This document shows positions 1-20,486 of a stretch of DNA of 50,515 nt, one piece after another (position 1 is the stretch's first letter; the number at the start of each line of letters is the position of its first letter). The stretch spans positions 1 to 50,515 of the forward strand of contig CAZHZQ010000001.1 in the NCBI GenBank assembly GCA_964537235.1, in the 5' to 3' direction. The translations under genes were made by a program, and so were the position numbers. This DNA is from an uncultured Actinomycetota bacterium (GTDB lineage: Bacteria > Actinomycetota > Nitriliruptoria > Nitriliruptorales > JAHWKO01). The notes below the pieces were generated by a model that did not search any database, was not told the DNA's origin, and worked only from the letters and a program-made list of their open reading frames with translations.

Positions 1-2
1 AG

Positions 3-2114
3 CAAGACTGGCTGAAGACGAACAGAGAGAGTTTCACACGCATGCTGCAGGGGCAGCGTGATCTCAGCTCGGTCTCGAGCACGATCCTCTCGGAACTCGC
101 GCCTCTCGTGTCTGCCCAGCATGGTGTCTTCTACGCGATGACGGGATCCAGCGAAGCGACCGATCCCGTGCTCTCCTTGCAGGCGGGATACGGCTACGAA
201 GAGCGCCGGCAGCTGTCGACCTCGTTCCGCCTGGGAGAGGGTCTGGTCGGGCAGTGCGCGAAGGAGAAGAAGCGGATCCTGCTCACCGAGGTTCCCGGCG
301 ACTACGTGCGGATCAACTCGGGACTTGGCGCGTCGCCTCCGCTCAACATCGTCGTGCTGCCGATCATGTTCGAGGGGTCGGTGCGCGCCGTGATCGAGCT
401 CGCCTCTGTCAACGCCTTCACCGAGACACACCTGACCTTCCTCGATCAGTTGACGGAGAACATCGGACTCGTCCTGAACTCGCTCGAGGCCAACGCCCAG
501 ACGGAGACGCTGCTCGGACAGGCCCAGTCGCTGGCAGAGGAACTGCAAACCCAGCAGGAAGAGCTACGCGCATCGAACGAAGACCTCGGAGAACAGGCGG
601 AACTGCTCGCCGAGCAGAACATCCAGGCGGAGCAACGCAACCGCGACGCTGAGAAGTCCAAGCAACTGCTCGAGGAGAAAGCCGGTCAGCTCACGCTCTC
701 GTCGAAGTACAAGTCCGAGTTCATCGCCAACATGTCCCACGAGCTGCGTACCCCGCTGAACAGCCTGCTGATGCTCGCCGAGCAGCTCGAGGACAATCCC
801 GACGGCAACATGACGGATGCTCAGGTGCAGTACGCCAGCGTCATCCGTTCGTCGGGCCAGGACCTGCTGTCTCTGCTCAACGGCATCCTCGACCTGGCGA
901 AGGTCGAGTCCGGAACGGTCGTCGCGAAGTTCGCCGAGGTTTCCGTCGAGGCGCTCTGCGATGCGCTGCGCAAGGAGTTCGAGCCCGTGGCGACCGCTCA
1001 GGATCTCGAGTTCTCCATCGTGGTCGATCCGGACGCACCGAAGACGTTCGTCACCGATCTGCAGCGCCTGCGGCAGATCCTGAAGAACCTCCTCTCGAAC
1101 GCGTTCAAGTTCACCGCTCACGGCGGGGTGACGGTGAGCATCGGATCGCCGGACAACGGATGGAGCTCTGAGAACGACTCACTGGAGCAGGCATCCGCTG
1201 TCGTGGCGTTCACCGTCAGCGACACCGGCATCGGGATCGAGCCCGAGGACCAGAACCGGATCTTCGAGGAGTTCGCACAGGGTGACGGCTCCACAGGCCG
1301 CTCCTACGGAGGCACCGGCCTCGGCCTCACGATCAGCCGCAACCTGGCACAACTGCTCCACGGCGAGATCACGGTGGCCAGCACCCCTGGTGAGGGAAGC
1401 GCGTTCACCGTCTTCCTGCCCTGGCAAGAGCCAACAGCGCAAGCACAGCCGGTCGAGCCTCGATCCGCGACGATGACCGAGAGACCCACCTCCACGACCG
1501 TGGCGAATGGATCGGCCCCGGCGACAGTGGCGGGGGAACCCAACCCCGCGACCGTGGAGCAGAGATCCGCCCCGGCCACCGTGACGGAGGAGTCCCCCCT
1601 CGCGCCGGACCCTGGAGGTTCGCCCGTTGATCTTCCGGTCGTGGAACGAGAGGACGTGACGACGGATCTTCCACCGTCGCCCGATCCCGTGAACGCTGCG
1701 CGACGGGCTCCTGTCGATCTCGAGGGCACGCGCGTGCTCGTCGTCGACGACGACTTCCGCAACCTCTTCGCGTTGACCGCCCTGCTCGAGCGCTCTCGGG
1801 CGAACGTCCTGACGGCGGAGAGCGGCAACGACGCACTTGCCCTGCTCGTCGACGGCGGCGGGGCCGTCGACATCGTCCTCATGGACATCATGATGCCGGT
1901 CATGGACGGCTACGAGACGATCCGTGCGATCCGCAGCCTCGATGGTTTGGGAGACCTGCCGATCATCGCGGTGACCGGCAAGGTCGTCAGCGGCGAGCGC
2001 GAGCGCTGCATCGCGGCCGGAGCGAACGACTACGTCCCCAAGCCGGTCGACACGAACGAGCTCATGACGGCGCTCGAGCCGTGGCTCGTACGTGCGGCAC
2101 GTCCACCCCGATGA
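3..2114 (+). CDS. Hybrid sensor histidine kinase (GAF - coiled coil - HisKA - HATPase_c - receiver), 5'-truncated by the window edge
   Basis: The frame is open from base 3 ([13 protein letters not shown] precedes the ATG at 42). H-box [10 protein letters not shown]2 box GTGLGL, C-terminal receiver VLVVDDD...[11 protein letters not shown]...VPKP. Stop TGA at 2112-2114. Confidence 0.9.
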
Positions 2115-4975: not shown

Positions 4976-5011
4976 CACTGATGCGGACCACAAACGGCTT
5001 GTCGTTGATGT

Positions 5012-5842
5012 TCAGCTGGCGAAGTAGTCGGTCATCGTCTTGACGTAGTCATCGGGATGGGTGAGGTAGGGGAGGTGGCCGGCTCCGGCGAAGGTGTGCC
5101 AGTGGGCGTCGGGAAGTGAGGCGGCGAGAGAGGCGAGGATCGCAGCGAACATGGGTGGGCTGGCGTCGCCATCGGTCAGCAGGAGGGGCATCGGGATTGA
5201 AGCCAGTGTGCTGACATCTATCGCGAGCGCTTCGGGGTCGCCGAGCTCCCCGAGGAGGGTCGGTCCATGGGCCGTGACGTTGTCTTGAATCTCGGGCGGG
5301 AGGCGTTCCCACCAGCCCGGTCCGAGCGTGACCTCTTCGATGAACAGCTCGACACCACCGGCGTTGTCACCGGATTCGAGGCGTTGGCGAACGGCCTCGA
5401 ACGACGCAGTGGTCTGGTCGTAGATGCTGGCGTGTTCCGGTTGACCGTCGAGGACAGAGAGAAGAGGGGGTTCGTGTCCGGCGACCCGCCGAACGAGGTC
5501 GGGGCGTTCGATGGCGAGGCGGAGCGCGACGTTGGTCCCGTAGGAGGTGCTGCACACGTGTGCTGGCCCGAGGTCGAGCTCCTCGATCAAGGCGGCCAGG
5601 TCGGAGGCGTCGTCGTGAACGGTGCCCTCAGCGGGCGGCCCGCCGCTCCGGCCGTGCCCGCGCCGGTCGTAGGTCACGACACGGAACGTTTCAGCAAGGC
5701 CGGGCGCGACGAAGCGCCACGCCGTGGATTCGGCCAAAGAGCCGTGCACGAGGACCAAAGGATCTCCAGCACCCGAGATGTCGTAGTGCAAGTTCGGCCG
5801 GTCCGGTCGTGTGATCGTGGCCACAACTTCCCCTTCGGTCAC
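5012..5842 (-). CDS. Alpha/beta-fold hydrolase
   Basis: LVLVHGS oxyanion region, nucleophile elbow STSYG, C-terminal GAGHLPYLTHP. GTG start at 5842. Confidence 0.85.
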   Translation of the reverse strand: MTEGEVVATITRPDRPNLHYDISGAGDPLVLVHGSLAESTAWRFVAPGLAETFRVVTYDRRGHGRSGGPPAEGTVHDDASDLAALIEELDLGPAHVCSTSYGTNVALRLAIERPDLVRRVAGHEPPLLSVLDGQPEHASIYDQTTASFEAVRQRLESGDNAGGVELFIEEVTLGPGWWERLPPEIQDNVTAHGPTLLGELGDPEALAIDVSTLASIPMPLLLTDGDASPPMFAAILASLAASLPDAHWHTFAGAGHLPYLTHPDDYVKTMTDYFAS

Positions 5843-5885
5843 ACCGATGGTCTGAGCCGGAGCAGGAACGCGCCACTGCTAGACC

Positions 5886-5930
5886 CGGTGGGCGCGGACG
5901 GTTTCGAACCGCCGGCCTCCGCCTTGTAAA
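5886..5930. repeat. Distal att site (attL/attR copy): displaced 3' part of tRNA-Val, a 45-bp perfect direct repeat of 13800-13844
   Basis: cggtgggcgcggacggtttcgaaccgccggcctccgccttgtaaa is identical at both positions. It covers the tRNA from the anticodon loop to the 3' end. Confidence 0.88.
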
Positions 5931-6051
5931 AACGGATAAGGGGGATACAAGCTGTTCCCGTGTTCCCCCAGATGTTCCGTTGTCAGAGAGCTAGACGGGG
6001 GTAGGAGGCTGTCTCGGGGGAGCGGGGCTTCCTAGCTGTTCCCGCCCTTTC

Positions 6052-6091
6052 CGGACGGCTCACGGACAAACGACGGACAGATGCGGACAGA
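6052..6091 (+). repeat. Phased CGGAC(A) repeats (putative integrase arm-type sites, distal arm)
   Basis: CGGAC cores at 6052, 6063, 6074 and 6085, exactly 11 bp apart. The same GACGGACAAA unit occurs twice at 13713-13733. Confidence 0.5.
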
Positions 6092-6095
6092 ATGG

Positions 6096-6302
6096 TCACT
6101 CACCCCCGAGCCGATCCGCAAGCCCGCTATAGAGGTAGACCCCGGCGAAAAACCCACCTATGCCGAACGGCCCGACTATCAAGAGACCGACGACGCCTCC
6201 GAGCCCCGGTCCCGTCGGGGTCGCCCCGCCGAGTTCCACGAGCATCGCTCCTAGCCAAATCCCCACAATGCTCCCGGCGACACCAAACAGAATTACCAAC
6301 AC
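6096..6302 (-). CDS. Small Gly-rich two-TM membrane protein (68 aa), unknown function
   Basis: Hydrophobic, glycine-zipper-like sequence (GVAGSIVGIWLGAML...GLLIVGPFGIGGFFAGVYL). GTG start directly after AGGGGAAC. High GC3. Confidence 0.55.
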   Translation of the reverse strand: MLVILFGVAGSIVGIWLGAMLVELGGATPTGPGLGGVVGLLIVGPFGIGGFFAGVYLYSGLADRLGGE

Positions 6303-6463
6303 GTTCCCCTATCCCGACCTAGCTTCGACCGTAGGGGGGAGGTCTACCCAAACATGGCGCGGCTCTTGACTCTTGCCTCCCGCGCTGCCCGGCTGGGTGT
6401 GCCGGGGGAGTGCGCGGAGCGAAGCGGAGCGCCTATGGAAAGGGCAGCCTCTCAGCTACTCCC

Positions 6464-6628
6464 TCAGCTACTCCCGTGGCTCAGCATGGCGCGGAGGTCC
6501 CGGTAGATATGTGTTGCTAGGTCCCACATGGCCCCCAGGTAGCCCCGCAGCGCCTTGCCCCAGAGGTACGCGAGGGCTCCGACCCACAGGGCGATGAAGG
6601 CGTAAAGGAGGAAGGCCGATCCGCTCAT
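6464..6628 (-). CDS. Small single-TM membrane protein (54 aa), unknown function
   Basis: MSGSAFLLYAFIALWVGALAYLWGKAL... has one clear TM and high GC3. The start is uncertain (ATG 6628 vs ATG 6661). Confidence 0.45.
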   Translation of the reverse strand: MSGSAFLLYAFIALWVGALAYLWGKALRGYLGAMWDLATHIYRDLRAMLSHGSS

Positions 6629-6697
6629 GGGGTGGTCCCTGGTTGGGGTAGCACCGTACATATGTTCGGGTCACGGGGGAAGGAGGAACCCAACTTG

Positions 6698-7108
6698 TTA
6701 CCCATCCACTACCCCACGGCGGATCGCATCAGCACATACCGGGGCGTCATGGTCGGCGGGATCGAGACATGCCGCGATGAGGTCAACACGGCCCACGTGT
6801 TCAGGTCCAGCCACCCCCATGGCGGCCGGGTGACGACGCAGGGCCTCTAGCCATTGCTGGGAGGTTCGGCAGGACGTGAGCGTCGTTCGGATGAGTGGGT
6901 TAGCCCGGGACGGGTCTGTCTCGGCTGCCGCTGCTCGCATGTCGGAGAGGCAGGCAGCGGACGGCTGGGTGGTGGTCTGTTCCTCGTCGTCGCCCCCCAG
7001 CAAGGCACCGACCCCGGCGAGCCCCAGGACCCCTACGAGGATTATGGCGGGGAGCTTCCACCACCGTCCGTCGTTCGAGTCCCGTCCTGGCTCAGGTTGG
7101 TCATCCAT
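6698..7108 (-). CDS. N-terminally membrane-anchored protein with a 4-Cys extracytoplasmic domain (136 aa), unknown function
   Basis: WWKLPAIILVGVLGLAGVGALLGG is a TM segment, followed by a soluble domain with four cysteines. ATG 7108 is preceded by GGGGAG. Confidence 0.6.
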   Translation of the reverse strand: MDDQPEPGRDSNDGRWWKLPAIILVGVLGLAGVGALLGGDDEEQTTTQPSAACLSDMRAAAAETDPSRANPLIRTTLTSCRTSQQWLEALRRHPAAMGVAGPEHVGRVDLIAACLDPADHDAPVCADAIRRGVVDG

Positions 7109-7493
7109 CCGGCTCCCCAGACGTTCCCCTTTCCCTGACCGTAGACGGGATGGTGGATCAGCTTCGCCCCATTCACCTATTCCACAGTTTCTCGGCAGGG
7201 GGACCTCACCTATATGACCACCCCTCAGGTTGAACCCGGCCTATAGTTGTGTGTACAACTATCTTCTGTGTGGAAGGTGACTCACTCTCGATCCTTCCTC
7301 GCTGCCGCCTTCCTTCCCTGACCACGACGGGGGCGACGGTCGGGGCGCGGGCAGGGTGCTGTTGAGACAGTCCTAAGACGGCCGGGGGGAGGTATGACTA
7401 TGGGGGCTGAGGTAGCTGTTCGATCCCCAGCCTGCCCCAGCCTTCCCCCCTGCCGCTTGCTCCACCCTCCGATCCTCCATCTTCACTCTGACC

Positions 7494-7522
7494 TTGCGAG
7501 GCTCTGACCAGGTGTGTAATAC
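7494..7522 (+). promoter_or_regulatory. Putative sigma-70-type promoter for the serine recombinase operon
   Basis: TTGCGA (7494-7499), a 17-nt spacer, then TAATAC (7517-7522), in an AT-richer stretch about 55 nt upstream of ATG 7578. Confidence 0.3.
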
Positions 7523-7577
7523 TTCTTTTAGTTACTATTACGCTCACGGTTGCAAGCAGCCGAACAGGAGGGCAGAG

Positions 7578-7793
7578 ATGAGGACGAGCGTCAGGGTTCA
7601 GGAGAAGGACTGGCGATCATTCGTCACGGTCGCGACCTACTCCCAACCGATGCAGGCTGAGGCGGATGCGTTCAAGCTGGTCCGCCAGGGCTACCACGTC
7701 GAGCTAGGGCACCACGGGACGCGGATGCGCGAGCCGGGACGGTCGAAGGTCTGGACGAACGCGGAGCATGACTGGAACGTGATTGACCGATGA
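7578..7793 (+). CDS. Small protein (71 aa), unknown function, first gene of the serine recombinase operon
   Basis: Strong AGGAGG 8 nt upstream of ATG 7578. Its stop overlaps the recombinase ATG (ATGA at 7790-7793). The track start at 7494 lacks an RBS. Confidence 0.5.
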   Translation: MRTSVRVQEKDWRSFVTVATYSQPMQAEADAFKLVRQGYHVELGHHGTRMREPGRSKVWTNAEHDWNVIDR

Positions 7794-8599
7794 GGTTGCT
7801 CGGATATCTGAGGGTCAGCACGAACGGGCAAGCGGACAACGGGACGAGCCTGCCCGGACAGCGGGAAGCGATCCAGACGTGGGCCAGGGAGAACGGCCAT
7901 GAGGTCGTCGGCTGGTACCAGGATGCAGGGGTATCGGGGGCGAAGGAGCTAGAGGACCGCGACGGGCTCGCGGACGCCTTCCACGACCTGAGACAGGGGG
8001 AAGCTCAGGGGCTGGTGGTGTACCGGCTGGACCGCCTGGCCCGTGACCTGATCGTGCAAGAGACACTGTTGGCTGAGCTATGGGGAATGCAGATCGGCTC
8101 GGTCCTGGACGACCGGGACGGGGCTGCCGTGTTCTCCACGATCCCCTCCGAGGGGGAGTACCTAACCCCTGACACGGACGATCCCTCACGGAAGCTCATC
8201 CGTCAGACGTTGGGGGCGGTAGCTGAGTACGAACGATCCATGATCGCGCTCCGCATGAAGGCAGGGCGGGACAGGAAGCGGAGGCAAGGTGGGTACGCGG
8301 GAGGACGCCCACCGTTCGGCTGGAAGGCTGAGGACGGGGAGCTAGTCCCGTGTCCGGATGAGCAAGAGACCGTCCAGCTTGCCCGTGAGCTACGTGAGGA
8401 CGGGATGAGCTACCGCCAGATCGCGGAGAGGCTGGTGGAGGAAGGTCACCCACCCCGAGCCGTCCGGGACGCTCAGCGGAAGGCTGAGCGGGGCGATGAG
8501 GACGTGGAGGTACCTATGGACTGGACCTGGCATCCGCCTCAGGTGAGCGCCCTCATGGACGACCCTGAGGTAGTGACCAGGACCGGGGCCGGGGAGTGA
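7790..8599 (+). CDS. Serine recombinase (resolvase/invertase catalytic domain plus C-terminal HTH-like region, 269 aa)
   Basis: N-terminus MRLLGYLRVSTNGQ (catalytic Ser), VVYRLDRLARD, AEYERSMIALRMKAGR, GGRPPFGW...MSYRQIAERL. Confidence 0.9.
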   Translation: MRLLGYLRVSTNGQADNGTSLPGQREAIQTWARENGHEVVGWYQDAGVSGAKELEDRDGLADAFHDLRQGEAQGLVVYRLDRLARDLIVQETLLAELWGMQIGSVLDDRDGAAVFSTIPSEGEYLTPDTDDPSRKLIRQTLGAVAEYERSMIALRMKAGRDRKRRQGGYAGGRPPFGWKAEDGELVPCPDEQETVQLARELREDGMSYRQIAERLVEEGHPPRAVRDAQRKAERGDEDVEVPMDWTWHPPQVSALMDDPEVVTRTGAGE

Positions 8600-8808
8600 G
8601 TGACGAGATGAGTGAGGACAACGGAACGACGGAAGGACCGAACATGGATCGCTGGGAACGTGACCACCGGAAGCTGCATCAGCTTCGCCGGGAGAGTGAG
8701 GCGCTGGGCGTGAAGGTGAGAGACGCTGACGCCATGAAGCTACAGAGGGAGGTTGGCTTTGAAGCTGACTACTCCCGGATCGTGGACGAGAGGGGTCATG
8801 GGGAATAG
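8596..8808 (+). CDS. Small charged protein (70 aa), unknown function
   Basis: GTG 8596 overlaps the recombinase TGA (GTGA). An alternative ATG lies at 8608. No recognisable motif. Confidence 0.4.
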   Translation: MSDEMSEDNGTTEGPNMDRWERDHRKLHQLRRESEALGVKVRDADAMKLQREVGFEADYSRIVDERGHGE

Positions 8809-9120
8809 TGGGATAGGGGTTATAGGGATGTTCGGGATGGGTAGTTGCCGGGGGCTACATCCCATCCATTCCGCAGCTACCTCCCACACATCCACGGTGG
8901 ACCCCCGTGTGAAATAGCGCGGGCTACTGGGAGGACGAGTAGTAGGGCGTGAGTGGCTGCATATAGCAATATCTGACAGTTCTAGACGGACGGTAGGGGT
9001 CGGTGGCCTTATACCCTCATGACATCCCTTGTCCTCCCTCTATATGCGGTGCCAGCCCCCTCTAGCTGCCTGTTTTTCTGAAAGTGGGGTTAGTGGCGCG
9101 TAGGTGGGGGACTATCACAA

Positions 9121-9140
9121 TTCTTATAGTTCTTATAGTT
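9121..9140 (+). repeat. Perfect 10-bp tandem repeat TTCTTATAGT x2 (iteron-like)
   Basis: Read directly. Related TCTTA(T/G) units occur at 9157, 9249, 9296 and 13667. Confidence 0.7.
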
Positions 9141-9237
9141 GAATAGGGGGGGTGTCTTATACCTCTCGGGGAGCCTTGCATGAGGGGCTGGGGTACTGCC
9201 GGGGAGCGGCATGAGAGGGAGGGGCGTGGTGGCTTAT

Positions 9238-9328
9238 CCGGGAAAAAGTCTTAGTAGGTCTCCCTGCCCCGTTCCGGCCCTTAACCGGGAAGTTTTCTTA
9301 GGTCTCATGGGTATAGGGTTTTTCCCGG
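9238..9328. repeat. 10-bp perfect inverted repeat CCGGGAAAAA / TTTTTCCCGG enclosing a 71-nt segment with internal direct repeats
   Basis: 9238-9247 is the reverse complement of 9319-9328. The inner units are TCTTAGTAGGTCTC (9249) and TCTTAGGTCTC (9296), with a central TCCGG...CCGGG hairpin. Confidence 0.6.
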
Positions 9329-9374
9329 ACAAGGAGGGATCGCGGGCTGGGGAGTAGCTGAGAACGGGACCGGG

Positions 9375-9436
9375 GGACCAGGACCCGAGAGAAGGCGAGA
9401 AAGCCTGGTCCGGTCGGGGGCGGAGAGTCCCCCGAC
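9375..9436 (-). terminator. Two tandem GC-rich hairpins just downstream of the minus-strand island operon
   Basis: GGACCAGG (9375-9382) pairs with CCTGGTCC (9404-9411), and GTCGGGGG (9413-9420) pairs with CCCCCGAC (9429-9436). There is no clear U-tract. Confidence 0.35.
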
Positions 9437-9460
9437 GGTTACCCGATCCCGTACCGTCCT

Positions 9461-10111
9461 TCAGGAGTCGTCGGTGAAGGCATCGTGTAGTCGGCTGTTG
9501 ACCTGTTGCCGCAGTTCCTCACTGGCGGTCACGCGCCCCGCCCGTTCACGGCTGCCTCCGCTACTCGACACGTACACGGTCTCAGCTTCCTCGAAGGGGA
9601 AGGGCTCGTACTCGACCTCGAACCTGCCGATGTTTTTCCCGGCCCTGGCAAACGCCTCGGTGTCCACCTCCTCGGGGAGGTTGTCGGGACGTGCCTGCCT
9701 CAGCTTGCGATGCCACCTACTTACTCGCTTGTTCTCCTCGGCAATCTCCTCCTTATAATCGGCTCTCGCTTCGTTCACCTTCTCCCGCTGCCCCTCAACA
9801 TCTCCCCGGTTCTCGCGGAGGTCGGCAAGGGCTTGCTCCTCAATCTCCGCAGCGGTCTCGTCAACTACTCGCTGGGCTACCCGTGTCAGGTTCCTCTCAG
9901 AGCCCTCCACTTGCAGACGGTGGTACTCGACGGCTGACCTGGCATCGCGTAGCTGGTCCTGGGTGACGGTGCGATCCCCGTCACTGAGCCGCTGTTGCAG
10001 TTCCTCTAGGTGGGCGACGGCCTCTGTGGCAGCTTCCTTATCGTCGGCAAGCTGCTGCCGTGCTTCGGGAATGGTCATGGTCTCGGTCGGTTCGGTTGGG
10101 TCGTCACTCAT
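9461..10111 (-). CDS. Coiled-coil protein (216 aa), unknown function
   Basis: Heptad-like, E/R/Q/A-rich sequence. ATG 10111 overlaps the upstream TGA (ATGA). Confidence 0.65.
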   Translation of the reverse strand: MSDDPTEPTETMTIPEARQQLADDKEAATEAVAHLEELQQRLSDGDRTVTQDQLRDARSAVEYHRLQVEGSERNLTRVAQRVVDETAAEIEEQALADLRENRGDVEGQREKVNEARADYKEEIAEENKRVSRWHRKLRQARPDNLPEEVDTEAFARAGKNIGRFEVEYEPFPFEEAETVYVSSSGGSRERAGRVTASEELRQQVNSRLHDAFTDDS

Positions 10112-10515
10112 GCCGCATCCCCTCCCAGTGTCCCCAGAGCGTCACTGAGGCGCAGGTCGACGGCAGTCTCATAATCGCCCTCAGCCTCAGCCTGGGCTAT
10201 CCTCCCATCCAGCGTGGAGGGCTCGGACCCTTCCCCTTCCTGTTCGTTCTCGCCCCGGTCGTTGTCGTTATCAGAGTCGTTCGGGGAGGCGCTCTCGTCG
10301 CCGGGGTTACCGGGGCCAGGGCCAGAGATGTCGTCCAAGCTCACCCCCTCTGCGTTGGTGTCGTCATCATCACTCGCCTCTAGGCTGTCGCTCATCCCCT
10401 GATCGGTGCGGAGGTCAATGCCCTCGTTGAGCCTTTGGGTAATGGCTCCATCCCGTTCCTTCCGTGTCATGTTCGCCCAGTCTGGTCGCTGGGTCTGGTC
10501 GTCTGTCTCACTCAT
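10108..10515 (-). CDS. Extremely acidic protein (135 aa), unknown function
   Basis: About 30% D+E (for example SLEASDDDDTNAEG, NDSDNDNDRGENEQEGEGSE). Translationally coupled to the downstream gene. Confidence 0.6.
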   Translation of the reverse strand: MSETDDQTQRPDWANMTRKERDGAITQRLNEGIDLRTDQGMSDSLEASDDDDTNAEGVSLDDISGPGPGNPGDESASPNDSDNDNDRGENEQEGEGSEPSTLDGRIAQAEAEGDYETAVDLRLSDALGTLGGDAA

Positions 10516-10579
10516 CTTCTTCTTTCCTTTCTCGCGTCACGTCCCGGTATCTCCGAGCCGCATCTCTTGTTGCTGACTG

Positions 10580-11554
10580 TCATGCCGCTTCCGTGATCCC
10601 CTCGCTCTGGTCGTCGTCCTGATCGACAACCTCACTCCACCCCGTGACCGCGTGCTGCCGCTCCCGTTCGATCTTTACCTGCCTCTGGATCTCCGCAGCC
10701 CAGCCCTCATCCGTGAGACCAGGGGGAACCGATCCCGACACCCACCACTCAGGTATGGGCTGCCCGTTACCCCGTAGGCGTTCGGCTGCCCGTAGCTGAA
10801 CGTCGGACAGGTGAGCCTTGTCCGAGAAGGCATCCAGGTCGATCCATTCCCGTTCTCCCTCAGGCTGGTAGCTCCGGAAGGGATTGGGAACTATCCAAGG
10901 ATGCTCCCTGCTGCCCCGCGATGAGGACAACACCTTGACCGTCTGCCCGACCACCAGAACCTCATGCAGCTTCCGGGCCGCGTCGTCCGGAGTGAGGCGT
11001 TGCCAGGGAAGCTCGTACTTACATGACCGCTGGGGGGACAGGTCAGCCGTGGCGAAGGCGTAGAGGGCGCTGTCCCGGTTCTCGATGGTCGCGTAGTTAG
11101 CCCAGCCCTCCCGTGCTGCCCGGTCGGAGATGGTCCGCTCCCGATAGGTCGTCTGGTCGTCCTTGTCCATCTCGCCGTAGCCCGGAACGGTGGCGGTCCA
11201 GATTGCGGGTTGTTCGAGGAAGCGGGAGAGGAAGTATTGGAGGGCTGCCCGTCCTCTCGGTTCCGCGCAACGGTCCCGGCAGTACCAGGAACCATGAGGC
11301 GGGAGAGGTACCGACTCCACCTGTCCATCCACGATCCGCCCCCTCACCATCTGCCCACAGTGGAGGACGTACTCGGGAACATCCGGGGTGGGGTACAGGT
11401 CGGGCCAGTCCACGCGGGGTACGCGGAGCCTGGCAAGCTCATCCGGGGCGATGCCGTGGAGGTAGGCAAGGTCGTCCAAGCTCCATAGGCGGGCCACGGT
11501 TGAGCCCGTTGCTGGGCTGCCCCCGGAGGCTTCCGGGGTACCATGTAGCTGCAA
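10580..11554 (-). CDS. Island protein of unknown function (324 aa); possible replication or initiation factor (weak)
   Basis: TTG start with GAAGG about 7 nt upstream. HC...C-x3-C cluster (LHCGQMVRGR...WYCRDRCAEP). It occupies the position after xis where integrative elements usually encode a replication protein. Confidence 0.6.
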   Translation of the reverse strand: MQLHGTPEASGGSPATGSTVARLWSLDDLAYLHGIAPDELARLRVPRVDWPDLYPTPDVPEYVLHCGQMVRGRIVDGQVESVPLPPHGSWYCRDRCAEPRGRAALQYFLSRFLEQPAIWTATVPGYGEMDKDDQTTYRERTISDRAAREGWANYATIENRDSALYAFATADLSPQRSCKYELPWQRLTPDDAARKLHEVLVVGQTVKVLSSSRGSREHPWIVPNPFRSYQPEGEREWIDLDAFSDKAHLSDVQLRAAERLRGNGQPIPEWWVSGSVPPGLTDEGWAAEIQRQVKIERERQHAVTGWSEVVDQDDDQSEGITEAA

Positions 11555-11687
11555 GGGATTACCTTCTCTCTGCTGGTCACGTTGGGCTTGTCCTTCCTCT
11601 GTTGACCGTTGCCCTCTCGGTGTCCTTCACGCCGGGAGGGCTTCTCTCATGTCACGTCCGTGAGCCCGTGGGTTCTCGGTTGTCTCG

Positions 11688-11876
11688 TTAGGCAGCCTGG
11701 TCCGCGTTCTCGGAGAGCCATTCCTCTACGTCTTCCTGACGGAACCTCAGGGCTCCCGTTCCTCCGGCGAGCCGGACGGCTCGGGGACCCTGGCCCTTGT
11801 AACGCCAGTTATAGATCGAGGAGGTACTGACACCGAGGTAGTCAGCAAGCTCATCGACGCTCATTAGGTCACTCAC
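11688..11876 (-). CDS. Excisionase / AlpA-type helix-turn-helix DNA-binding protein (62 aa)
   Basis: MSVDELADYLGVSTSSIYNWRYKGQGP...RFRQEDVEEWL is the typical HTH_17/Xis pattern. GTG start preceded by AAGGAAAG. Confidence 0.75.
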   Translation of the reverse strand: MSDLMSVDELADYLGVSTSSIYNWRYKGQGPRAVRLAGGTGALRFRQEDVEEWLSENADQAA

Positions 11877-11947
11877 AGTCTTTCCTTTCTAGTGCTGGAT
11901 TGTCTATCGCGTGGCCGGTCTGCCCCACATAGTCATGTTACGGTAAG

Positions 11948-12523
11948 ATGTTTCCCAAGCTGTACAGCCTGTTGGATATCGCAACACGAAGGACCACGGT
12001 GGCGAAGCAAGAGAGGGGTGCCAGTGGCCTCCCTGACGACGTTCGGGAGTATCTGGATGAGGTCGTGGAGGCTGTCGCTGCGATGGTCCAGGGAGAGCCC
12101 CCGCCCAGGAACCCACGGGCCGCGCTAGAGGCAGCTATCTCGGCTGCGTCAGGGCTGGGGGGCTGGCAGACGATCACGGACGTTCCGAACGTCCTTCGGA
12201 CCAACATCGTTCGACTCCGGAAAGAGAAGGGCTGGACCCAACAGGGGCTCGCTGACCAGATGGAGGCAGCCGGGTTCGGCTGGACCAGAGCGATAGTCAG
12301 TCACGTAGAGACGGTGGAGCCCGACACAGCTCAGGTCAGACGGCAGGTGTCGGTCACAGAGGTTCTAGGGCTGGCCCTCATTTTCGACGTCCCCCTGACC
12401 TCTCTGCTGGTCCCGGCTGACGGGGAGACACCTGTTGAGGTTGGGGGCCGCAGCCTCACCCCGGACGACCTGAGAGACCTCATCGAACGACGGACGACGG
12501 ACGACGGACAGGAAGGGCGCTAG
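11948..12523 (+). CDS. XRE-family HTH transcriptional regulator (cI-like repressor candidate)
   Basis: LRKEKGWTQQGLADQM...SHVE...VTEVLGLALIFDVPLTSLL. Divergent from the xis-like gene, with its stop 2 nt before the integrase ATG. The start is uncertain. Confidence 0.72.
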   Translation: MFPKLYSLLDIATRRTTVAKQERGASGLPDDVREYLDEVVEAVAAMVQGEPPPRNPRAALEAAISAASGLGGWQTITDVPNVLRTNIVRLRKEKGWTQQGLADQMEAAGFGWTRAIVSHVETVEPDTAQVRRQVSVTEVLGLALIFDVPLTSLLVPADGETPVEVGGRSLTPDDLRDLIERRTTDDGQEGR

Positions 12524-12525
12524 TC

Positions 12526-13656
12526 ATGGCGCACATACGGAAGCGAGAGGGAAAGACGGGCCGGAGCTATCAGGTCCGGTGGGTCGACCCTGACGGACAG
12601 GAGCGGGCTAAGACGTTCTCGCGGAAGGGTCCAGCCGATGTATTCCTCCGCAAGGTGGAGCGGGAGATGGACACGGGGGAGTACGTCGATCCGTCCCGTG
12701 GCGACACGCCCTATGCGACATGGGTGGAGGACGGGTGGTGGCCCGGATACGCCCCCACGCTCGGAGACTCCACACGTATCCGGTACCGGGGCATCCTGGA
12801 CAACTACCTCTTGCCAAGGTTCGGGGACACAAAGCTGTCCCGGCTGAGGCAGGAGGACATACAGGCGTGGGTGGGGGACCTCACGGAGGAAGATGGACTC
12901 GCCCCTGCCACGGTGAAGAAGAACTATGACCTCCTGCAACGCTCCGTGGAGGCTGCCGTTGCCGCTGACAGGTTGCAGCGGTCCCCGTGCAAGGGCATCC
13001 ACCTACCCCGGCAGGACTCTCAGGAGATGAGGGCTCTCACTCCCTCTCAGGTGGACGCTCTCGCCACGACCATCGCGCCCCTGTACCGGGCTATGGTCCT
13101 GGTCGCTGCCTACGGGGGGCTGAGGCTGGGGGAGCTTGCGGGCTTGAAGGTGGATCGGGTGGACCTCCTGCATGGTCAGGTCCAGGTGGTGGAGACGCTG
13201 TCATGGCCCAAGGGCAAGCCCACTCCGAAGCCGGTTCCCAAGAGCGACGCTGGACGGAGGATGGTGGGGCTTCCGGGGAGCGTGGTGGAAGCTCTGGACC
13301 TCCACCTGTCCAGCTATCCCGCGTCCGATGAGGGCTACATCTTCACGTCTGTTGAGGGGCTGCCTCTGAGGAAGGACAACTACCGCCGTCGTCACTGGAA
13401 CCCAACCACGGAAGCGGTCGGGCTCCCGGCTCTGAAGTTCCATGAGCTAAGGCACACGGCCGCATCCCTCATGATCCGGGCGGGAGCGGACGTGTTGACC
13501 CTGGCCCGGAGGCTCGGTCACGCGAAGCCCTCCTACACCTTGGACCTGTACGGACACTGGTACCCGGACCAGGATCAGGCGCTCCGTTCCAACCTTGACG
13601 CAATGATCGAGAGCGGCAGCGTGGAGGCGTCGAACGTGGCGAACATGAACGGCTGA
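12526..13656 (+). CDS. Tyrosine-type site-specific integrase
   Basis: N-terminal SAM-like domain. Catalytic region GLRLGELAGL...HELRHTAASL...LGHAKPSYTLDLYGHW (R..HxxR..Y). Adjacent to the tRNA att site. Confidence 0.93.
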   Translation: MAHIRKREGKTGRSYQVRWVDPDGQERAKTFSRKGPADVFLRKVEREMDTGEYVDPSRGDTPYATWVEDGWWPGYAPTLGDSTRIRYRGILDNYLLPRFGDTKLSRLRQEDIQAWVGDLTEEDGLAPATVKKNYDLLQRSVEAAVAADRLQRSPCKGIHLPRQDSQEMRALTPSQVDALATTIAPLYRAMVLVAAYGGLRLGELAGLKVDRVDLLHGQVQVVETLSWPKGKPTPKPVPKSDAGRRMVGLPGSVVEALDLHLSSYPASDEGYIFTSVEGLPLRKDNYRRRHWNPTTEAVGLPALKFHELRHTAASLMIRAGADVLTLARRLGHAKPSYTLDLYGHWYPDQDQALRSNLDAMIESGSVEASNVANMNG

Positions 13657-13712
13657 GGGGATGAGTCTTATGTGCCTCTTGGGTAACCGTCCCGCCTCCG
13701 TCCCGTCTGAGC

Positions 13713-13733
13713 GACGGACAAATGACGGACAAA
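13713..13733 (+). repeat. GACGGACAAA x2, 11 bp apart (putative integrase arm-type sites, int-proximal arm)
   Basis: Two identical 10-mers at 13713-13722 and 13724-13733. The same core and phasing occur at 6052-6091. Confidence 0.5.
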
Positions 13734-13799
13734 CGGGATGCGGCCCGAACCCCTCTCAGCCCCAAAGTGCCGATATCCGGTAGTTATACCTCTCTAGCT

Positions 13800-13844
13800 C
13801 GGTGGGCGCGGACGGTTTCGAACCGCCGGCCTCCGCCTTGTAAA
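13800..13844. repeat. Proximal att site within the intact tRNA-Val (partner of 5886-5930)
   Basis: 45/45 identity with 5886-5930. Confidence 0.88.
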
Positions 13845-13876
13845 GGCGGCGCTCTCCCAAGCTGAGCTACGCGCCC
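13801..13876 (-). tRNA. tRNA-Val (anticodon UAC)
   Basis: The reverse complement folds as a cloverleaf: acceptor GGGCGCG/CGCGCCC, D stem GCTC/GAGC, anticodon stem CCGCC/GGCGG with loop TTTACAA, T arm GGCGG-TTCGAAA-CCGTC, discriminator A. CC is encoded. Confidence 0.95.
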
Positions 13877-13936
13877 GAGCGCGGAGCATGGTAACCGGCG
13901 CCCCTACCCTCACGGGGGTCGACGAAAGGGACAGCT

Positions 13937-15055
13937 GTGGCCGATCGGGTGTCGGACTGGGTGTCGCTGGTCCACGATCTGTACCCGCCCGCGCGTGCCG
14001 CGGACTGGGACAACGTGGGCCTCCAGGTCGGCGATCCGGACGATCCGGTCGAGCGGGTCCTGGTCACGTTGGACGTGACCTCGTCCGTCGTCGAGGAAGC
14101 CGCGGACGGCGCGGCGACGCTGATCGCCGCACACCATCCGTTGCTGTTCCAGTCGTTGTCGCAGGTGACCCCGGCGACCGCATCCGGGCGGATCGCGCTG
14201 GCGGCTGCCAAAGCGCACGTGTCGGTCCTCGCCGCACACACCAACCTCGACGTGGCGGACGACGGGGCGGGTACGTCTGACCCGATCATGCGTGCCCTCG
14301 GCATCGACGACACCCGACCGCTCACGAGCGAGACCCGGCAGTCCGACGAGGTGAAGCTCGTGACCTTCGTGCCGTCCGACGACGTCGATGCTGTCCTGGA
14401 CGCGCTGGCCGACGCGGGCGCGGGTGTGATCGGCGACTACGAACGGTGTTCGTTCCGCGTGGTCGGAACCGGCACGTTCCGCCCCGGTGCGGACGCGGAT
14501 CCCTACAGCGGCGCGGTGGGAGAGGACAACGAGGAGACGGAGGCTCGCCTCGAGATCGTCGTACCCCGTCGCCGGCTCGGTGGTGCGATCCGGGCACTGC
14601 TGGGCGCACATCCGTACGAGGAGGTCGCCTACGACGTCTACCCGCTCGTGGCAGGCGGGCGGATCGGCTTCGGGCGCCTCGGAGAGCTGGATGCCCCCAC
14701 GCCGCTGTCAGCGGTCGCCGGTCGCGTACGTGAAGCCCTGCCGGCGCCCCACCTCCGCTTCGCCGGGGACCCGGATCGCCGGGTGCAGCGGATCGCCGCC
14801 GTCGGGGGTTCGGGCGACTCGTTGATCCCGGCTGCGCTCGGTGCCGGGGCGGACGTCCTGGTCACCGGCGATCTCAAGCACCACGTCACGCTCGATGCAC
14901 TGGAGATGGGCCTGGCGCTGATCGACGCCGGTCACCACGCCACCGAGGTCGCGGCGATGCCGGCCTGGATCGACCGACTGCGGCACGAGGCATCCCAGAG
15001 GGAGCTGCAGGCGGAGGTGGTAGCTTCGTCCGTCCCCACGAGCCCGTGGGTCTGA
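13937..15055 (+). CDS. Nif3-like dinuclear metal centre protein (GTP cyclohydrolase I type 2 homologue)
   Basis: DWDNVGLQVGD, LIAAHHPLLF, HTNLD, C-terminal VTGDLKHH...DAGHHATE. GTG start. Confidence 0.9.
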   Translation: MADRVSDWVSLVHDLYPPARAADWDNVGLQVGDPDDPVERVLVTLDVTSSVVEEAADGAATLIAAHHPLLFQSLSQVTPATASGRIALAAAKAHVSVLAAHTNLDVADDGAGTSDPIMRALGIDDTRPLTSETRQSDEVKLVTFVPSDDVDAVLDALADAGAGVIGDYERCSFRVVGTGTFRPGADADPYSGAVGEDNEETEARLEIVVPRRRLGGAIRALLGAHPYEEVAYDVYPLVAGGRIGFGRLGELDAPTPLSAVAGRVREALPAPHLRFAGDPDRRVQRIAAVGGSGDSLIPAALGAGADVLVTGDLKHHVTLDALEMGLALIDAGHHATEVAAMPAWIDRLRHEASQRELQAEVVASSVPTSPWV

Positions 15056-20112: not shown

Positions 20113-20486
20113 GTGAGGAGCCGACCGGGCGGCCGCGGTTTCGCATCACGCGGGATCGAGGAAAGTCCGGACTCCACAGGGCAGGGTGCTGGGGAGAACC
20201 CCAGGCGCGGCGACGCGTGGACAGTGCCACAGAAAACACACCGCCGATGGCCGCACACGCGGCACAGGCAAGGATGGAACGGTGCGGTAAGAGCGCACCA
20301 GCGTCCGGGGCGACCCAGGCGGCTCGGTAAACCCCACCAGGAGCAAGGCCAAGCAGGGACAGGGCGGCCCGTCCGACGTCCCAGGTAGGCCGCTAGAGAC
20401 GCTGGGCAACCGGCGTCCCAGACAGATGGTCGCCACCCCGCACTCACGGTGGGGCACAGGATCCGGCTTACAGGTCGGCTCCTCAC
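20113..20486 (+). ncRNA. rnpB: RNase P RNA, bacterial type A
   Basis: P1 pairing between 20113-20126 (gtgaggagccgacc) and 20473-20486 (ggtcggctcctcac). Universally conserved blocks GAGGAAAGTCCGGAC, ACAGAAAACA, GGTAAGAGCGCACCAG, GGTAAACCCCACC, AGCAAGGCCAAG, ACAGGATCCGGCTTACAG. Confidence 0.93.

Follow-up and report, generated by a model that had tools for sequence, protein, structure and literature searches.

We are fairly confident that a 7,914-bp integrative element occupies the 3′ part of a tRNA-Val(UAC) gene in a Nitriliruptoraceae-like actinobacterium, and that its own tyrosine integrase inserted it. The element lies within the 50.5-kb stretch of DNA that was analyzed (the window), and it is a genuine tRNA-targeting integrative island. 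The initial annotation had proposed an integrative element here, and that reading gains support from an anticodon-loop core, phased CGGACA repeats, an HTH_17 excisionase, six integrase catalytic residues and the geometry of related AICEs. The element is probably excision-competent. Because no recognizable replication, conjugation, capsid or packaging gene was found, it is most likely not self-transmissible and is either cryptic or dependent on a helper, whether a phage or an FtsK-type conjugative element. It contains the tyrosine integrase, an Xre-like regulator, the excisionase, a Pin-like serine recombinase and nine ORFs essentially without homologues.

Borders and attachment sites

The features that define the element ends are as follows.

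5886..5930, no strand: tRNA-distal att copy, an orphan tRNA-Val 3′ part
13800..13844, no strand: tRNA-proximal att copy within the intact tRNA gene, reaching from the anticodon loop to 3 nt beyond the discriminator
13801..13876, minus: intact tRNA-Val(UAC); ARAGORN tRNA-Val(tac), Rfam RF00005 66.5 bits at 13803-13876
13838..13844 (twin 5924-5930), no strand: predicted 7-bp overlap (crossover) region, the anticodon loop
6063..6089, plus: three CGGACA copies at spacings of 11 and 10 bp, lying 133-159 nt in from the left end; candidate arm-type sites for the integrase
13715..13731, plus: two CGGACA copies at a spacing of 11 bp, lying 69-85 nt in from the right end; candidate arm-type sites for the integrase
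13657-13799 + core + 5931-6100: predicted attP
5856-5885 + core + 13845-13876: predicted attB

The perfect 45-bp direct repeat annotated at the borders was confirmed. All 45 positions of 5886-5930 match 13800-13844, and over the longer span, 5886-5935 vs 13800-13849, the agreement is 48/50. A sensitive blastn-short search found exactly two copies in the window, with a next best match of 11 nt; by our own arithmetic the chance expectation of a 45-mer repeat in 50 kb is ∼1e-18. ARAGORN, Rfam and reading of the sequence all identified the second copy as the 3′ part of an intact tRNA-Val, as annotated. The block of identity begins precisely at the 5′ boundary of the anticodon loop, where the predicted overlap region lies, continues across the T arm and the acceptor strand, and stops 3 nt beyond the discriminator (13800). 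On the plus strand CCGCC (13833-13837) and GGCGG (13845-13849) are the two anticodon-stem strands, and TTGTAAA (13838-13844) is the loop. The stem strands supply inverted core-type sites that are perfect in the tRNA and match at 3/5 positions on the element side (AACGG vs GGCGG), the classic layout in which inverted core sites flank a 7-bp overlap. These features place the predicted crossover at the 7-bp anticodon loop. On this model the tRNA-distal copy would be the displaced, host-derived one. The alpha/beta hydrolase gene said to adjoin it does so (5012-5842, minus; Abhydrolase_1, 4.7e-24), although its start codon (5842) is 43 nt from the orphan copy rather than 44.

In the window, helically phased CGGACA repeats are confined to the inner edges of the element's two ends, and both sets have the same orientation. 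Three phased pairs were observed in the whole window vs 0.13 expected, and 5/6 exact matches to GACGGACAR are inside the element. Judged by these statistics and by position, the repeats look like integrase arm-type sites.

The lower GC content noted in the initial annotation was also found (interior 0.629, right flank 0.700, left flank 0.661), with the shift at the element borders; the drop is modest, and the left flank is itself somewhat low. Genes sampled elsewhere in the window are ordinary chromosomal genes, in agreement with the description of the element as the only clearly accessory DNA.

Integration and excision module

Three genes form the module next to the tRNA.

12526..13656, plus: tyrosine integrase, 376 aa; PF00589 (Phage_integrase) 3.6e-19, PF14659 1.1e-9, PHROG 1 integrase 4.3e-59
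11948..12523, plus: Xre-like HTH protein, 191 aa; weak HTH_31/HTH_3 matches (0.0087, 0.025)
11688..11876, minus: excisionase / AlpA-like HTH_17 protein, 62 aa; PF12728 5.7e-14

The integrase, correctly placed beside the tRNA by the initial annotation, ends 143 nt before the repeat on the tRNA side. It is intact, and R200, K239, H306, R309, H332 and Y342 are invariant in an alignment with 6 relatives. The Xre-like gene is immediately upstream of int and co-directional with it; a 49% identical homologue holds the equal position in the closest relative, locus L086 (HTH_31, 7e-4), and the protein is a candidate repressor or regulator. The excisionase gene is divergent from the regulator-int pair. 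Its product is 65% identical to the L086 excisionase and 42% identical to the excisionase of an AICE, L099.

The circular form is predicted to carry attP, whose core would be the tRNA copy from the anticodon loop to just beyond the 3′ end, flanked by the putative arm-type sites, which lie 69-85 nt away toward int and 133-159 nt away in the opposite direction. Int would bridge arm and core sites and exchange strands across the 7-bp anticodon loop. With exchange at this position, integration would restore an intact tRNA from the host 5′ part and the element-borne 3′ part, leaving the host 3′ part as an orphan copy 7.9 kb away beside the hydrolase gene. Excision would require both Int and the divergently transcribed HTH_17 excisionase, and the Xre-like protein is probably the switch at the 71-bp divergent promoter region.

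Cargo genes and non-coding regions

The remaining features are listed from left to right.

6096..6302, minus: ORFan, 68 aa, Gly-rich, very hydrophobic, about two membrane segments in the translation; weaker coding signal, GC3 0.71
6451..6474, plus: tandem pair of the 12-mer CTCAGCTACTCC
6464..6661, minus: ORFan, 65 aa, one hydrophobic segment; GC3 0.83, gene also called in Logan
6698..7108, minus: ORFan, 136 aa, one hydrophobic segment at the N terminus, Cys in the C-terminal part
7243..7262, no strand: perfect palindrome ATAGTTGT-GTGT-ACAACTAT, read in the sequence of the divergent intergenic region
7493..7557, plus: conserved promoter-like piece TTGCGA-17-TAATAC; blastn 77% over 65 nt vs L087
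7494..7793, plus: small ORF upstream of the serine recombinase and overlapping its start; GC3 0.77
7790..8599, plus: Pin-like small serine recombinase, 269 aa; PF00239 7.9e-31, PHROG 95 2.1e-55
8596..8808, plus: ORFan, 70 aa, start overlapping the serine recombinase stop; no family matches
8809..9460, no strand: non-coding, lower-GC (about 0.59), repeat-rich stretch of 652 bp between convergent gene ends
9461..10111, minus: coiled-coil ORFan, 216 aa, last gene of the xis operon
10108..10515, minus: acidic ORFan, 135 aa; coding GC3 signature, stop overlapping the next gene's start
10580..11554, minus: ORFan, 324 aa (305 aa in the Logan gene call)

The initial annotation had described the cargo as almost only proteins of unknown function. 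This held for the nine ORFs, but the serine recombinase and the excisionase had been missed. No Rep, Tra, capsid or terminase match was found among the cargo using Pfam, PHROGs, NCBIfam and PADLOC, and tblastn with RepSA, TraSA, Nudix, GntR and AAA_25 detected no remnants of these genes in the element (E > 0.01).

The serine recombinase has resolvase, Gin invertase and TP901-1 as PDB relatives, and its homologue in L087 is 85% identical. Its family has >4,000 matches of 227-334 aa, mostly about 230-250 aa; since the family itself has this length, a truncated large serine integrase was rejected. The ORF at 7494..7793 is 99 aa long if started at TTG, and Logan calls it as a gene of 71 aa that begins at the ATG at 7578; it is not conserved upstream of the L087 recombinase. 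The piece at 7493-7557 is common to the upstream regions of both recombinase genes and may be a promoter. Within the non-coding stretch 7109-7493 (about 385 bp) the palindrome is a candidate operator. The 136-aa ORFan is predicted to be membrane-anchored and had no match in Pfam, PHROG, NCBIfam or PADLOC. A third, inverted copy of CTCAGCTACTCC is at 9351-9362.

In the xis operon, the 324-aa ORFan sits in the slot of a replication gene in relatives, where L086 has an AAA_25 protein. It matched no family in Pfam, PHROG, NCBIfam or PADLOC, its AF2 pLDDT was 36-37, and among 1.84 billion representatives it has one real remote homologue (P0002). A relationship to RepSA was rejected (hhalign probability 0.2%). 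The acidic ORFan likewise had no match in these four collections. The coiled-coil ORFan gave only weak coiled-coil-type matches (JetC/SMC, E 2.5e-4 to 8e-3) and has no relatives in IMG/VR.

Long intergenic regions had been noted, and the longest, 8809-9460, is a candidate origin or cis-acting site. It contains short direct repeats, for example TCTTATAGT x2 at 9122-9142, and an inverted repeat of 15 nt (93% complementary) at 9233/9319. It holds no ORF with a coding signature, no Rfam match and no Pfam remnant in six frames, and its RNA fold z-scores are only -1.0 and -1.4. By our own gene list ∼76% of the interior is coding and ∼24% non-coding; a non-coding share of about a quarter could mean decay, which counts against our main reading.

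Relatives and distribution

The integrase is 45-46% identical to integrases of canonical AICEs, elements with RepSA/FtsK/Nudix/GntR. In these relatives int (plus) is followed by a tRNA (minus), tRNA-Val(GAC) or tRNA-Ala, which is the geometry of the element; unlike the element, they carry Rep and Tra genes. The closest relative, L086 (75% Int identity), shares the module of xis divergent from hth-int. Other elements with this module, with AAA_25 downstream of xis, have 35-46% identical integrases and are roughly 10-11-kb entries with capsid, portal and/or TerL: capsid and portal in L105, capsid and TerL in L128, and all three in L136. Their architecture is phiRv2-like or cf-PICI-like. The element matches the divergent layout of these small capsid-encoding elements but has no detectable capsid or packaging gene.

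The tRNA-Val/Nif3 neighborhood is conserved in 10/20 related Nitriliruptoraceae loci. Gene order to the right of the tRNA is shared with the 20 related genomes, and this synteny ends at the tRNA. An integrase beside tRNA-Val was found in 0/20 of them, the only match (L011) being downstream of Nif3. No close relative was found in GTDB representatives or JGI metagenomes, the nearest genomes having 59-69% Nif3 identity. Searchable collections yielded no empty attB, circular attP junction or polymorphism, since they hold no close relatives, and present-day mobility is therefore something that we infer. Exact-protein look-ups returned only contigs breaking at the repeat, or nothing. An identical element is present in an independent Logan assembly of two SRA runs, whose contig reaches 30 nt into each of the repeat copies and stops there, which is what a k=31 graph branching at the 45-bp repeat should give; the window is a single NCBI metagenome-derived contig, and k=31 unitigs cannot re-verify the order of flank, repeat and element.

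Alternative explanations

The repeat could be unrelated to the integrase, either a duplicated tRNA fragment or an assembly chimera of two contigs at a common tRNA sequence, given a metagenome-derived contig and unitigs unable to phase the two sides of the repeat. We regard this as extremely improbable: the block of identity is exactly what anticodon-loop integration predicts, the integrase directly adjoins the tRNA in the orientation seen in relatives, arm-type repeats are confined to the two inner ends, GC content shifts at the borders, and the interior contig stops in both copies at exactly 30 nt. Loss of replication and transfer or packaging genes from an originally larger element, whether AICE or small prophage/satellite, leaving an immobilized, cryptic island, is unlikely. 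Such a remnant would account for the missing Rep/Tra of AICE relatives and AAA_25/capsid/terminase of module relatives and for the non-coding quarter with its 652-bp and ∼385-bp gaps, and AICE remnants keeping int, xis and kor are documented (PMC2440964). Against decay, the two repeat copies still agree at 45/45 positions, Int keeps every catalytic residue and, like Xis, is intact, tblastn found no pseudogene debris of RepSA, TraSA, Nudix, GntR or AAA_25, six-frame translation of the long gap revealed no Pfam domain, and the ORFs retain a coding GC3 signature and overlapping start/stop codons.

Two alternatives invoke a helper. The element may be a helper-dependent phage satellite of a minimal PICI/PICMI-like style, which we consider unlikely. 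In such a cycle, repression by the Xre-like protein would be lifted by a helper phage, and the element would be cut out by Xis and Int, replicated from the repeat-rich 652-bp region by the ORFan operon next to xis, and packaged into helper capsids. The gene order follows the PICI plan (int and repressor one way, xis and a replication slot the other, then a non-coding repeat region), and 7.9 kb is within the range of PICIs (median 9.5 kb) and PICMIs (about 6 kb). The module relatives L105, L128 and L136 encode capsid, portal or TerL, and phiRv2, a 10.8-kb element in tRNA-Val, has a tyrosine recombinase (PMC3986857). However, no primase/replicase, terS, capsid-morphogenesis, capsid, portal or TerL gene was detected, only 2/5 PICI core components (PMC10085698) and 2/4 PICMI components are present, 0/9 cargo proteins match among 50,697 phage genomes, IMG/VR holds no relatives and no helper is known. 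Mobilization by a co-resident FtsK/TraB-type conjugative element (AICE or plasmid), with the repeat-rich non-coding region as a clt-like cis site, is very unlikely and would be an argument purely by analogy. The integrase clade is that of AICEs, AICEs are present in the same class (L099/L100, Egibacteraceae MAG), and FtsK/TraB-type transfer needs one Tra protein and a cis-acting clt locus only (PMC3218068); yet no Tra, relaxase or known clt motif was found, nor a co-resident AICE within the window.

As a tRNA-integrated island, the element belongs to a well-known and very common class. It is unusual only in its cargo, almost all of which is without known relatives.

Borders of the element and its tRNA target

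The initial annotation read this region as an integrative element in tRNA-Val, and that interpretation was right. Examination of positions 5000-15000 with a repeat finder gave one outstanding direct repeat, 5886-5935 versus 13800-13849, in which 48/50 positions match and the first 45 are identical. The perfect 45-bp repeat (45/45) that had been described as delimiting the element, together with the whole tRNA, was searched against the window using blastn-short with a word size of 7. Only two copies were found, and the next best match was 11 nt.

The second copy lies within an intact tRNA-Val gene, as proposed. ARAGORN called tRNA-Val(tac) on the minus strand at 13801-13876, and the Rfam tRNA model matched 13803-13876 with a score of 66.5 bits. 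On the plus strand the anticodon-stem strands are 13833-13837 (CCGCC) and 13845-13849 (GGCGG), the loop is 13838-13844 (TTGTAAA), and the discriminator is 13803. Read from these positions, the start of the identity block coincides with the 5' edge of the anticodon loop, and the block stops 3 nt past the discriminator. The five bases following the repeat on the orphan side (the tRNA-distal copy, 5886-5930) are AACGG instead of the GGCGG of the tRNA, so around the 7-bp loop the element-borne copy still has an incomplete inverted repeat.

The orphan copy was correctly placed beside an alpha/beta-hydrolase gene (5012-5842, minus strand; Abhydrolase_1, 4.7e-24), whose start is 43 nt away. The enclosed DNA is also less GC-rich, as had been noted, with 0.629 in the interior against 0.700 in the right flank and 0.661 in the left flank.

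Gene content

Genes were called from third-position GC and frame analysis, translations, and independent Logan gene calls.

Features of the element and its flanks
1-5885: left flank, ordinary chromosomal functions (GAF-histidine kinase/receiver, PAS-GGDEF-EAL protein, alpha/beta hydrolase)
6096-6302, 6464-6661 and 6698-7108, minus: three ORFans, small and hydrophobic or membrane-anchored from their translations
7494 or 7578-7793, plus: small ORF, 99 or 71 aa, first of a converging three-gene plus-strand unit
7790-8599, plus: Pin-like serine recombinase, 269 aa (PF00239, 7.9e-31)
8596-8808, plus: ORFan, 70 aa, start overlapping the recombinase stop
8809-9460: non-coding stretch of 652 bp, GC about 0.59, with short repeats
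9461-10111, minus: coiled-coil ORFan, 216 aa, on the strand of xis
10108-10515, minus: acidic ORFan, 135 aa, on the strand of xis
10580-11554, minus: ORFan p324, 324 aa, on the strand of xis
11688-11876, minus: HTH_17 excisionase (xis), 62 aa (PF12728, 5.7e-14), separated from hth by a 71-bp divergent region
11948-12523, plus: Xre-like HTH protein (hth), 191 aa, stop 2 nt from the int start
12526-13656, plus: tyrosine integrase (int), 376 aa (PF00589, 3.6e-19; PF14659; PHROG 1, 4.3e-59)
Right flank, ordinary chromosomal functions: Nif3, CT398-like coiled-coil zinc-ribbon protein, glucoamylase-type hydrolase, RNase P RNA, acyl-CoA ligase-type enzyme, branched-chain amino-acid ABC transporter genes, CoA transferase, penicillin-binding transpeptidase
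20117-20486, plus: bacterial RNase P RNA class A (250.7 bits)

The tyrosine integrase (PF00589 plus PF14659) adjoins the tRNA, as the initial annotation stated. Three gene pairs are joined by overlapping stop and start codons: the small ORF and the serine recombinase (ATGA, 7790-7793), the recombinase and the 70-aa ORF (GTGA, 8596-8599), and the acidic and coiled-coil ORFs (ATGA, 10108-10111). These overlaps imply translational coupling and support the ORFans as real genes.

The statement that the cargo falls almost wholly outside known families was borne out. Searches of the non-recombinase cargo proteins against Pfam, PHROGs, NCBIfam, and PADLOC gave nothing beyond weak coiled-coil noise. 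Defence-system cargo was considered and rejected, the PADLOC matches being only spurious coiled-coil. Comparison of the element with phage and plasmid records by blastn returned nothing except one tRNA-sized match, and none of 50,697 phage and 72,556 plasmid records was matched by the nine concatenated cargo proteins using tblastn. Scans of IMG/VR using p324, the integrase, and the coiled-coil protein as queries gave no relatives. A consensus scan for promoters and terminators produced 0 promoters and 2 terminator-like sites, which is below the shuffle mean. A perfect palindrome, ATAGTTGT-GTGT-ACAACTAT, is located at 7243-7262, in the gap that separates the serine-recombinase unit from the 136-aa membrane ORF, and is a candidate operator.

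Integrase and site-specific insertion

An alignment with six relatives shows no variation at any of the six catalytic residues of the integrase (R200, K239, H306, R309, H332, and Y342). Heterobivalent (lambda-Int-like) integrases combine catalytic R-K-H-R-H/W-Y residues and an N-terminal arm-binding domain with arm-type sites in attP, which lie on either side of the core. There are 55 occurrences of the hexamer CGGACA in the window, and pairs phased at 9-12 bp are found only at 6063/6074/6084 and 13715/13726. Both phased sets are on one strand, the first 133-159 nt in from the left end of the element and the second 69-85 nt in from the right end, and the number of phased pairs in the window is 3 versus 0.13 expected. 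The exact form GACGGACAR is found six times in the window, 5/6 within the element. In an excised circle the CGGACA repeats would flank the core (the shared 45-mer) on both arms and would be candidate arm-type sites. In addition to the candidate arm repeats at both ends, the precomputed annotation holds a weak PF26003 match at the integrase N-terminus.

In tRNA-gene integration the anticodon stem-loop serves as core sites plus 7-bp overlap. [quoted passage not shown] The integrase is 45-46% identical to those of canonical actinomycete integrative conjugative elements (AICEs). One, in an Egibacteraceae MAG (L099/L100), has Nudix, GntR, FtsK_SpoIIIE, RepSA, HTH_17, and int genes, with the int end ∼75 nt from an opposite-strand tRNA-Ala; loci L095-L097 have RepSA, HTH_17, and int, with the int end 47 nt from tRNA-Val(gac). 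In the window, as in both of these, int is read in the direction of the 3' end of a tRNA gene on the opposite strand. [quoted passage not shown] That the repeat is a fortuitous or unrelated tRNA fragment was ruled out by the catalytic residues, the phased CGGACA repeats, the AICE-like geometry, and the extent of the repeat taken together.

The canonical AICE of L099/L100 is located at about 2300-11260 of its locus, a few kb from gyrA/gyrB/dnaN/dnaA, in the class Nitriliruptoria. A 2011 survey reported AICEs as confined to Actinomycetales (Ghinet et al. 2011, PMC3218068). The gyrA gene adjacent to the L099/L100 AICE contains an intein with a LAGLIDADG domain.

Comparison with known classes of element

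AICEs are recognized by an integrase, a replication initiator, and an FtsK/SpoIIIE Tra protein (Ghinet et al. 2011, PMC3218068). The element resembles them in the clade of its integrase, shared with RepSA/FtsK-bearing elements at 45-46% identity, in its HTH_17 excisionase, in its small size (pSAM2 is 10.9 kb), and in its insertion in the 3' part of a tRNA gene left intact (PMC2440964), with a terminal int facing the tRNA. A tyrosine (or serine) integrase (here PF00589, 3.6e-19, with conserved catalytic residues) and an attB over the 3' end of a tRNA that is kept functional are both present. The remaining AICE functions were not detected. No ORF had a Pfam or NCBIfam match to a RepSA, RepAM (DUF3631), or Prim-Pol initiator; two RepSA proteins used as tblastn queries gave E ≥ 0.17; and p324 aligned with RepSA by hhalign profile-profile comparison at a probability of 0.2%. 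For the FtsK/SpoIIIE Tra (PF01580), the Pfam and NCBIfam searches gave no match, and the L099 TraSA gave a tblastn match of E = 0.42 that falls outside the element. The RepSA, TraSA, Nudix, and GntR proteins of the relatives found nothing in the element by tblastn. Unlike AICEs, the element has no Rep (RepSA/RepAM/Prim-Pol), FtsK/SpoIIIE Tra, Nudix, or GntR-type Kor. Its xis is divergent from int, whereas AICEs have a co-directional rep-xis-int operon, and its host belongs to the class Nitriliruptoria rather than to Actinomycetales.

A second resemblance is to phiRv2, a small prophage-like element, and to capsid-forming phage satellites (cf-PICI). The closest integrase relative (75% identity) is on a 3.2-kb Logan contig, L086, with the gene order xis | hth-int as in the window and an AAA_25 helicase-type gene after xis. 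An alignment-based scan of IMG/VR returned elements with a minus-strand xis upstream of int and integrase identities of 35-46%. AAA_25 was confirmed in four of them (L105, L112, L128, and L136), of which L128 also has an hth homologue. Three (L105, L128, and L136) are 9.9-11.4 kb 'proviruses', each with an HK97-type capsid gene; an SPP1-type portal is present in L105 and L136, and TerL in L128 and L136. These three are phiRv2-like or capsid-forming-satellite-like Actinomycetota elements with the recombination-module order of the window element. The order replication gene, divergent xis and HTH regulator, int, tRNA is common to L086, L105, L128, and L136, and phiRv2 (10.8 kb) likewise has a tyrosine recombinase and uses tRNA-Val (PMC3986857). 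SatelliteFinder places M. tuberculosis elements resembling phiRv1 and phiRv2 with PICI (PMC10085698). The group differs from the element in carrying AAA_25 and an HK97-type capsid, portal and/or TerL where the element has unrelated ORFans, and its integrase identities are only 35-46% except for L086 (75%). None of the genes that define cf-PICI/phiRv2-like elements (own capsid, portal, head-tail adaptor/connector, and TerL, with no tail or lysis genes) was detected in the element. The element thus shares a recombination and regulation module with this group and none of its replication or capsid genes.

The PICI core list was taken from SatelliteFinder (PMC10085698) and the PICMI definition from PMC10803314; 2/5 PICI core components and 2/4 PICMI components were found. 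For PICI, an integrase is present (Pfam and PHROGs), and the HTH_17/AlpA-like 62-aa protein (PF12728, 5.7e-14; PF05930, 4.9e-4) and the Xre-like 191-aa protein are candidates for a regulation module (alpA/merR/stl). No primase-replicase was matched using Pfam, PHROGs, or NCBIfam, its slot being filled by p324, and no ORF tested had a PHROG or Pfam match to a capsid-morphogenesis gene or small terminase. Of the PICMI arrangement, int, alpA, and a primase (DUF3987/DUF5906) by fis, int and an alpA-like gene are present, the primase is absent, and the site is tRNA-Val. The integrase at one end, the AlpA/HTH_17-type protein, the divergent regulatory region, the small size, and the absence of structural and lysis genes are all satellite-like (PMC10085698, PMC10803314). 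The element differs from PICI and PICMI in having no primase/replicase (DUF3987, DUF5906, and others), terS, or capsid-morphogenesis gene, and in not being adjacent to fis, and there was no sign of a helper phage.

For a prophage, virion structural, packaging, and lysis genes were sought, and the PHROGs matches were the integrase and the serine recombinase only. No phage relatives of the element or its cargo were found among 50,697 phage records by blastn or tblastn. A filamentous or other small prophage was rejected since no morphogenesis ATPase, capsid, or Rep was matched. There is no essential difference from generic tRNA islands with lambda-type (heterobivalent) integrases, in which the repeat likewise runs from the tRNA anticodon loop to the 3' end and candidate arm-type sites are on both arms; the element stands out from these by its ORFan cargo and extra serine recombinase. 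Because the Rep/Tra, primase, and capsid genes are lacking, it was filed only as a tRNA-targeting integrative island with a lambda/AICE-type integrase, and it is not assigned to AICE, PICI, PICMI, cf-PICI, or prophage.

Serine recombinase and repeated sites

The serine recombinase matches PF00239 (7.9e-31) over residues 4-168, followed by a weak HTH_7 and a partial PF07508, and has a YLRVST motif at residues 6-11. These features make it a small serine recombinase (resolvase/invertase), with an N-terminal Resolvase catalytic domain containing the active-site Ser and a C-terminal DNA-binding region. The gene is intact, and its product falls in a very large Pin-like family (4,027 matches) whose members are 227-334 aa long, mostly ∼230-250 aa. 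The possibility that the recombinase and the downstream 860 bp are a decayed large serine integrase was rejected because the homologues are naturally 227-334 aa and the gap has no Pfam remnant.

Other family members are found in variable islands beside restriction-modification, Abi, and helicase-nuclease genes, or have DUF3987 and WhiB genes around them in what may be a phage/plasmid-like setting. Three homologues of 53-55% identity are next to defence-type genes: L101 has Abi_C and type I restriction-modification genes, while L103 and L104 have PLD-SNF2 helicase, Eco57I-like, DUF4411, and M78 peptidase-HTH genes. This suggests that the family marks variable or defence islands. The contig with an 85%-identical recombinase (L087) has only that gene and a 65-nt promoter-like piece in common with the window, which indicates that the recombinase gene moves between contexts. 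In the element it may act in multimer resolution or inversion, or may be a hitch-hiking gene.

The 12-mer CTCAGCTACTCC occurs exactly three times, as a tandem pair at 6451-6474 (plus) and an inverted copy at 9351-9362 (minus). Counting a flanking base as well, the copies make up a 14/14 inverted repeat whose arms are 2,886 nt apart, and the sites bracket 2.9 kb containing the serine recombinase and four small genes. They could serve as a site set for inversion or regulation, but their geometry differs from that of hix, gix, or res sites, and they do not resemble canonical dimer-binding sites.

p324 and the non-coding region

p324 occupies the position of the replication gene of relatives. A search of 5.8 billion clusters found only p324 itself. 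In 1.84 billion representatives, HMMER detected a single true remote homologue (27% identity across 220 residues), encoded on a 1-kb contig that provides no context. The two proteins share LTPD-x12-VLVVGQ ... PW-x-PNPFR. A PDB sequence search gave no match, and two AlphaFold models had pLDDT values of 35-37 and were unusable.

The 652-bp region was rejected as a decayed gene, having no Pfam remnant, and as a known or structured RNA, having no Rfam match and fold z-scores of only -1.0 and -1.4. An origin or other cis site would be consistent with the short repeats of the region and its position after the last xis-operon gene. A sequence within it, CTTATACCTCTC at 9156-9167, recurs as GTTATACCTCTC at 13783-13794 on the int side, 6 nt from the att core (2 matches observed versus 0.04 expected), and could be bound in both places by one protein, such as Xis or a host factor.

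Host neighbourhood

The window makes up the whole of one NCBI contig of 50,515 bp. The best relatives of the Nif3-family gene right of the tRNA, among GTDB species representatives, are 59-69% identical and belong to Nitriliruptoraceae, Nitriliruptorales, and unclassified Actinomycetota MAGs. tRNA-Val(tac) lies within ∼250 bp upstream of Nif3 in 10/20 related loci, as in the window. Protein-level synteny extends 5-10 kb right of the tRNA in the longer related loci and is absent left of it. None of the 20 related genomes has an integrase match beside tRNA-Val; the sole match, in L011, is downstream of Nif3. The tRNA-Val 3' parts of the related genomes differ from the 45-mer at 8-11 positions, which makes the core of the element specific to its own host lineage.

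The left flank (1-5885, GC 0.661) has no synteny to the 20 related Nitriliruptoraceae loci, and the right flank is syntenic. Synteny breaks at tRNA-Val, so 1-5885 could be a variable region in its own right; a further att copy was not detected there. A 95-nt tRNA-Pro(cgg) called by ARAGORN at 49331-49425 overlaps the transpeptidase (PBP) ORF at 49296-50483 (minus) and gains no support from Rfam at its gathering threshold; the call is probably false.

Mobility and significance

The closest relatives recovered were distant: the best Nif3 match among GTDB species representatives was 69% identical, with synteny only right of the tRNA, and the hydrolase matched JGI metagenome proteins at ≤34% identity only. 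Neither an empty site nor a circular junction was found, exact-protein look-ups of the hydrolase, integrase, and Nif3 giving repeat-broken Logan unitigs or nothing. Unitig L082 corresponds to 5901-13829, so that it covers the interior together with 30 nt from either repeat copy, and unitig L081, with the hydrolase gene, likewise stops after 30 nt of the repeat. A k = 31 graph breaks in this way at a 45-bp repeat, a pattern equally compatible with integrated, excised, and empty forms. The perfect repeats, intact int and xis, conserved candidate arm repeats, and coding-quality ORFs favor an element that would still be excisable. Its lack of Rep, Tra, and packaging genes speaks against autonomous spread.

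A more ambitious reading, which we felt was rather unlikely, is a new family of minimal helper-dependent islands in Nitriliruptoria, satellite or mobilisable. Under it, p324 and the 135-aa and 216-aa ORFans downstream of xis, together with the 652-bp region, would be a novel replication or hijacking module replacing the AAA_25 helicase and capsid genes of the phiRv2-like/cf-PICI-like relatives, and the three CTCAGCTACTCC sites plus the Pin-like recombinase would be an internal inversion or resolution switch.

In bacterial genomes, islands integrated in tRNA genes by tyrosine integrases rank among the most frequent findings. The element is this common kind of feature, with ORFan cargo and in an under-sampled lineage, and opens no long-standing question. 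It is nevertheless a mobile island with sharp borders, from a class that has been little studied and is mostly uncultured. Since its cargo is almost wholly without homologues, any function found there would be new. Exact attP, attB, integrase, and excisionase sequences can be derived and offer a possible site-specific integration tool for Nitriliruptoria, and the integrase of the element, being of AICE type within a module order of satellite type, connects AICEs with small satellites.
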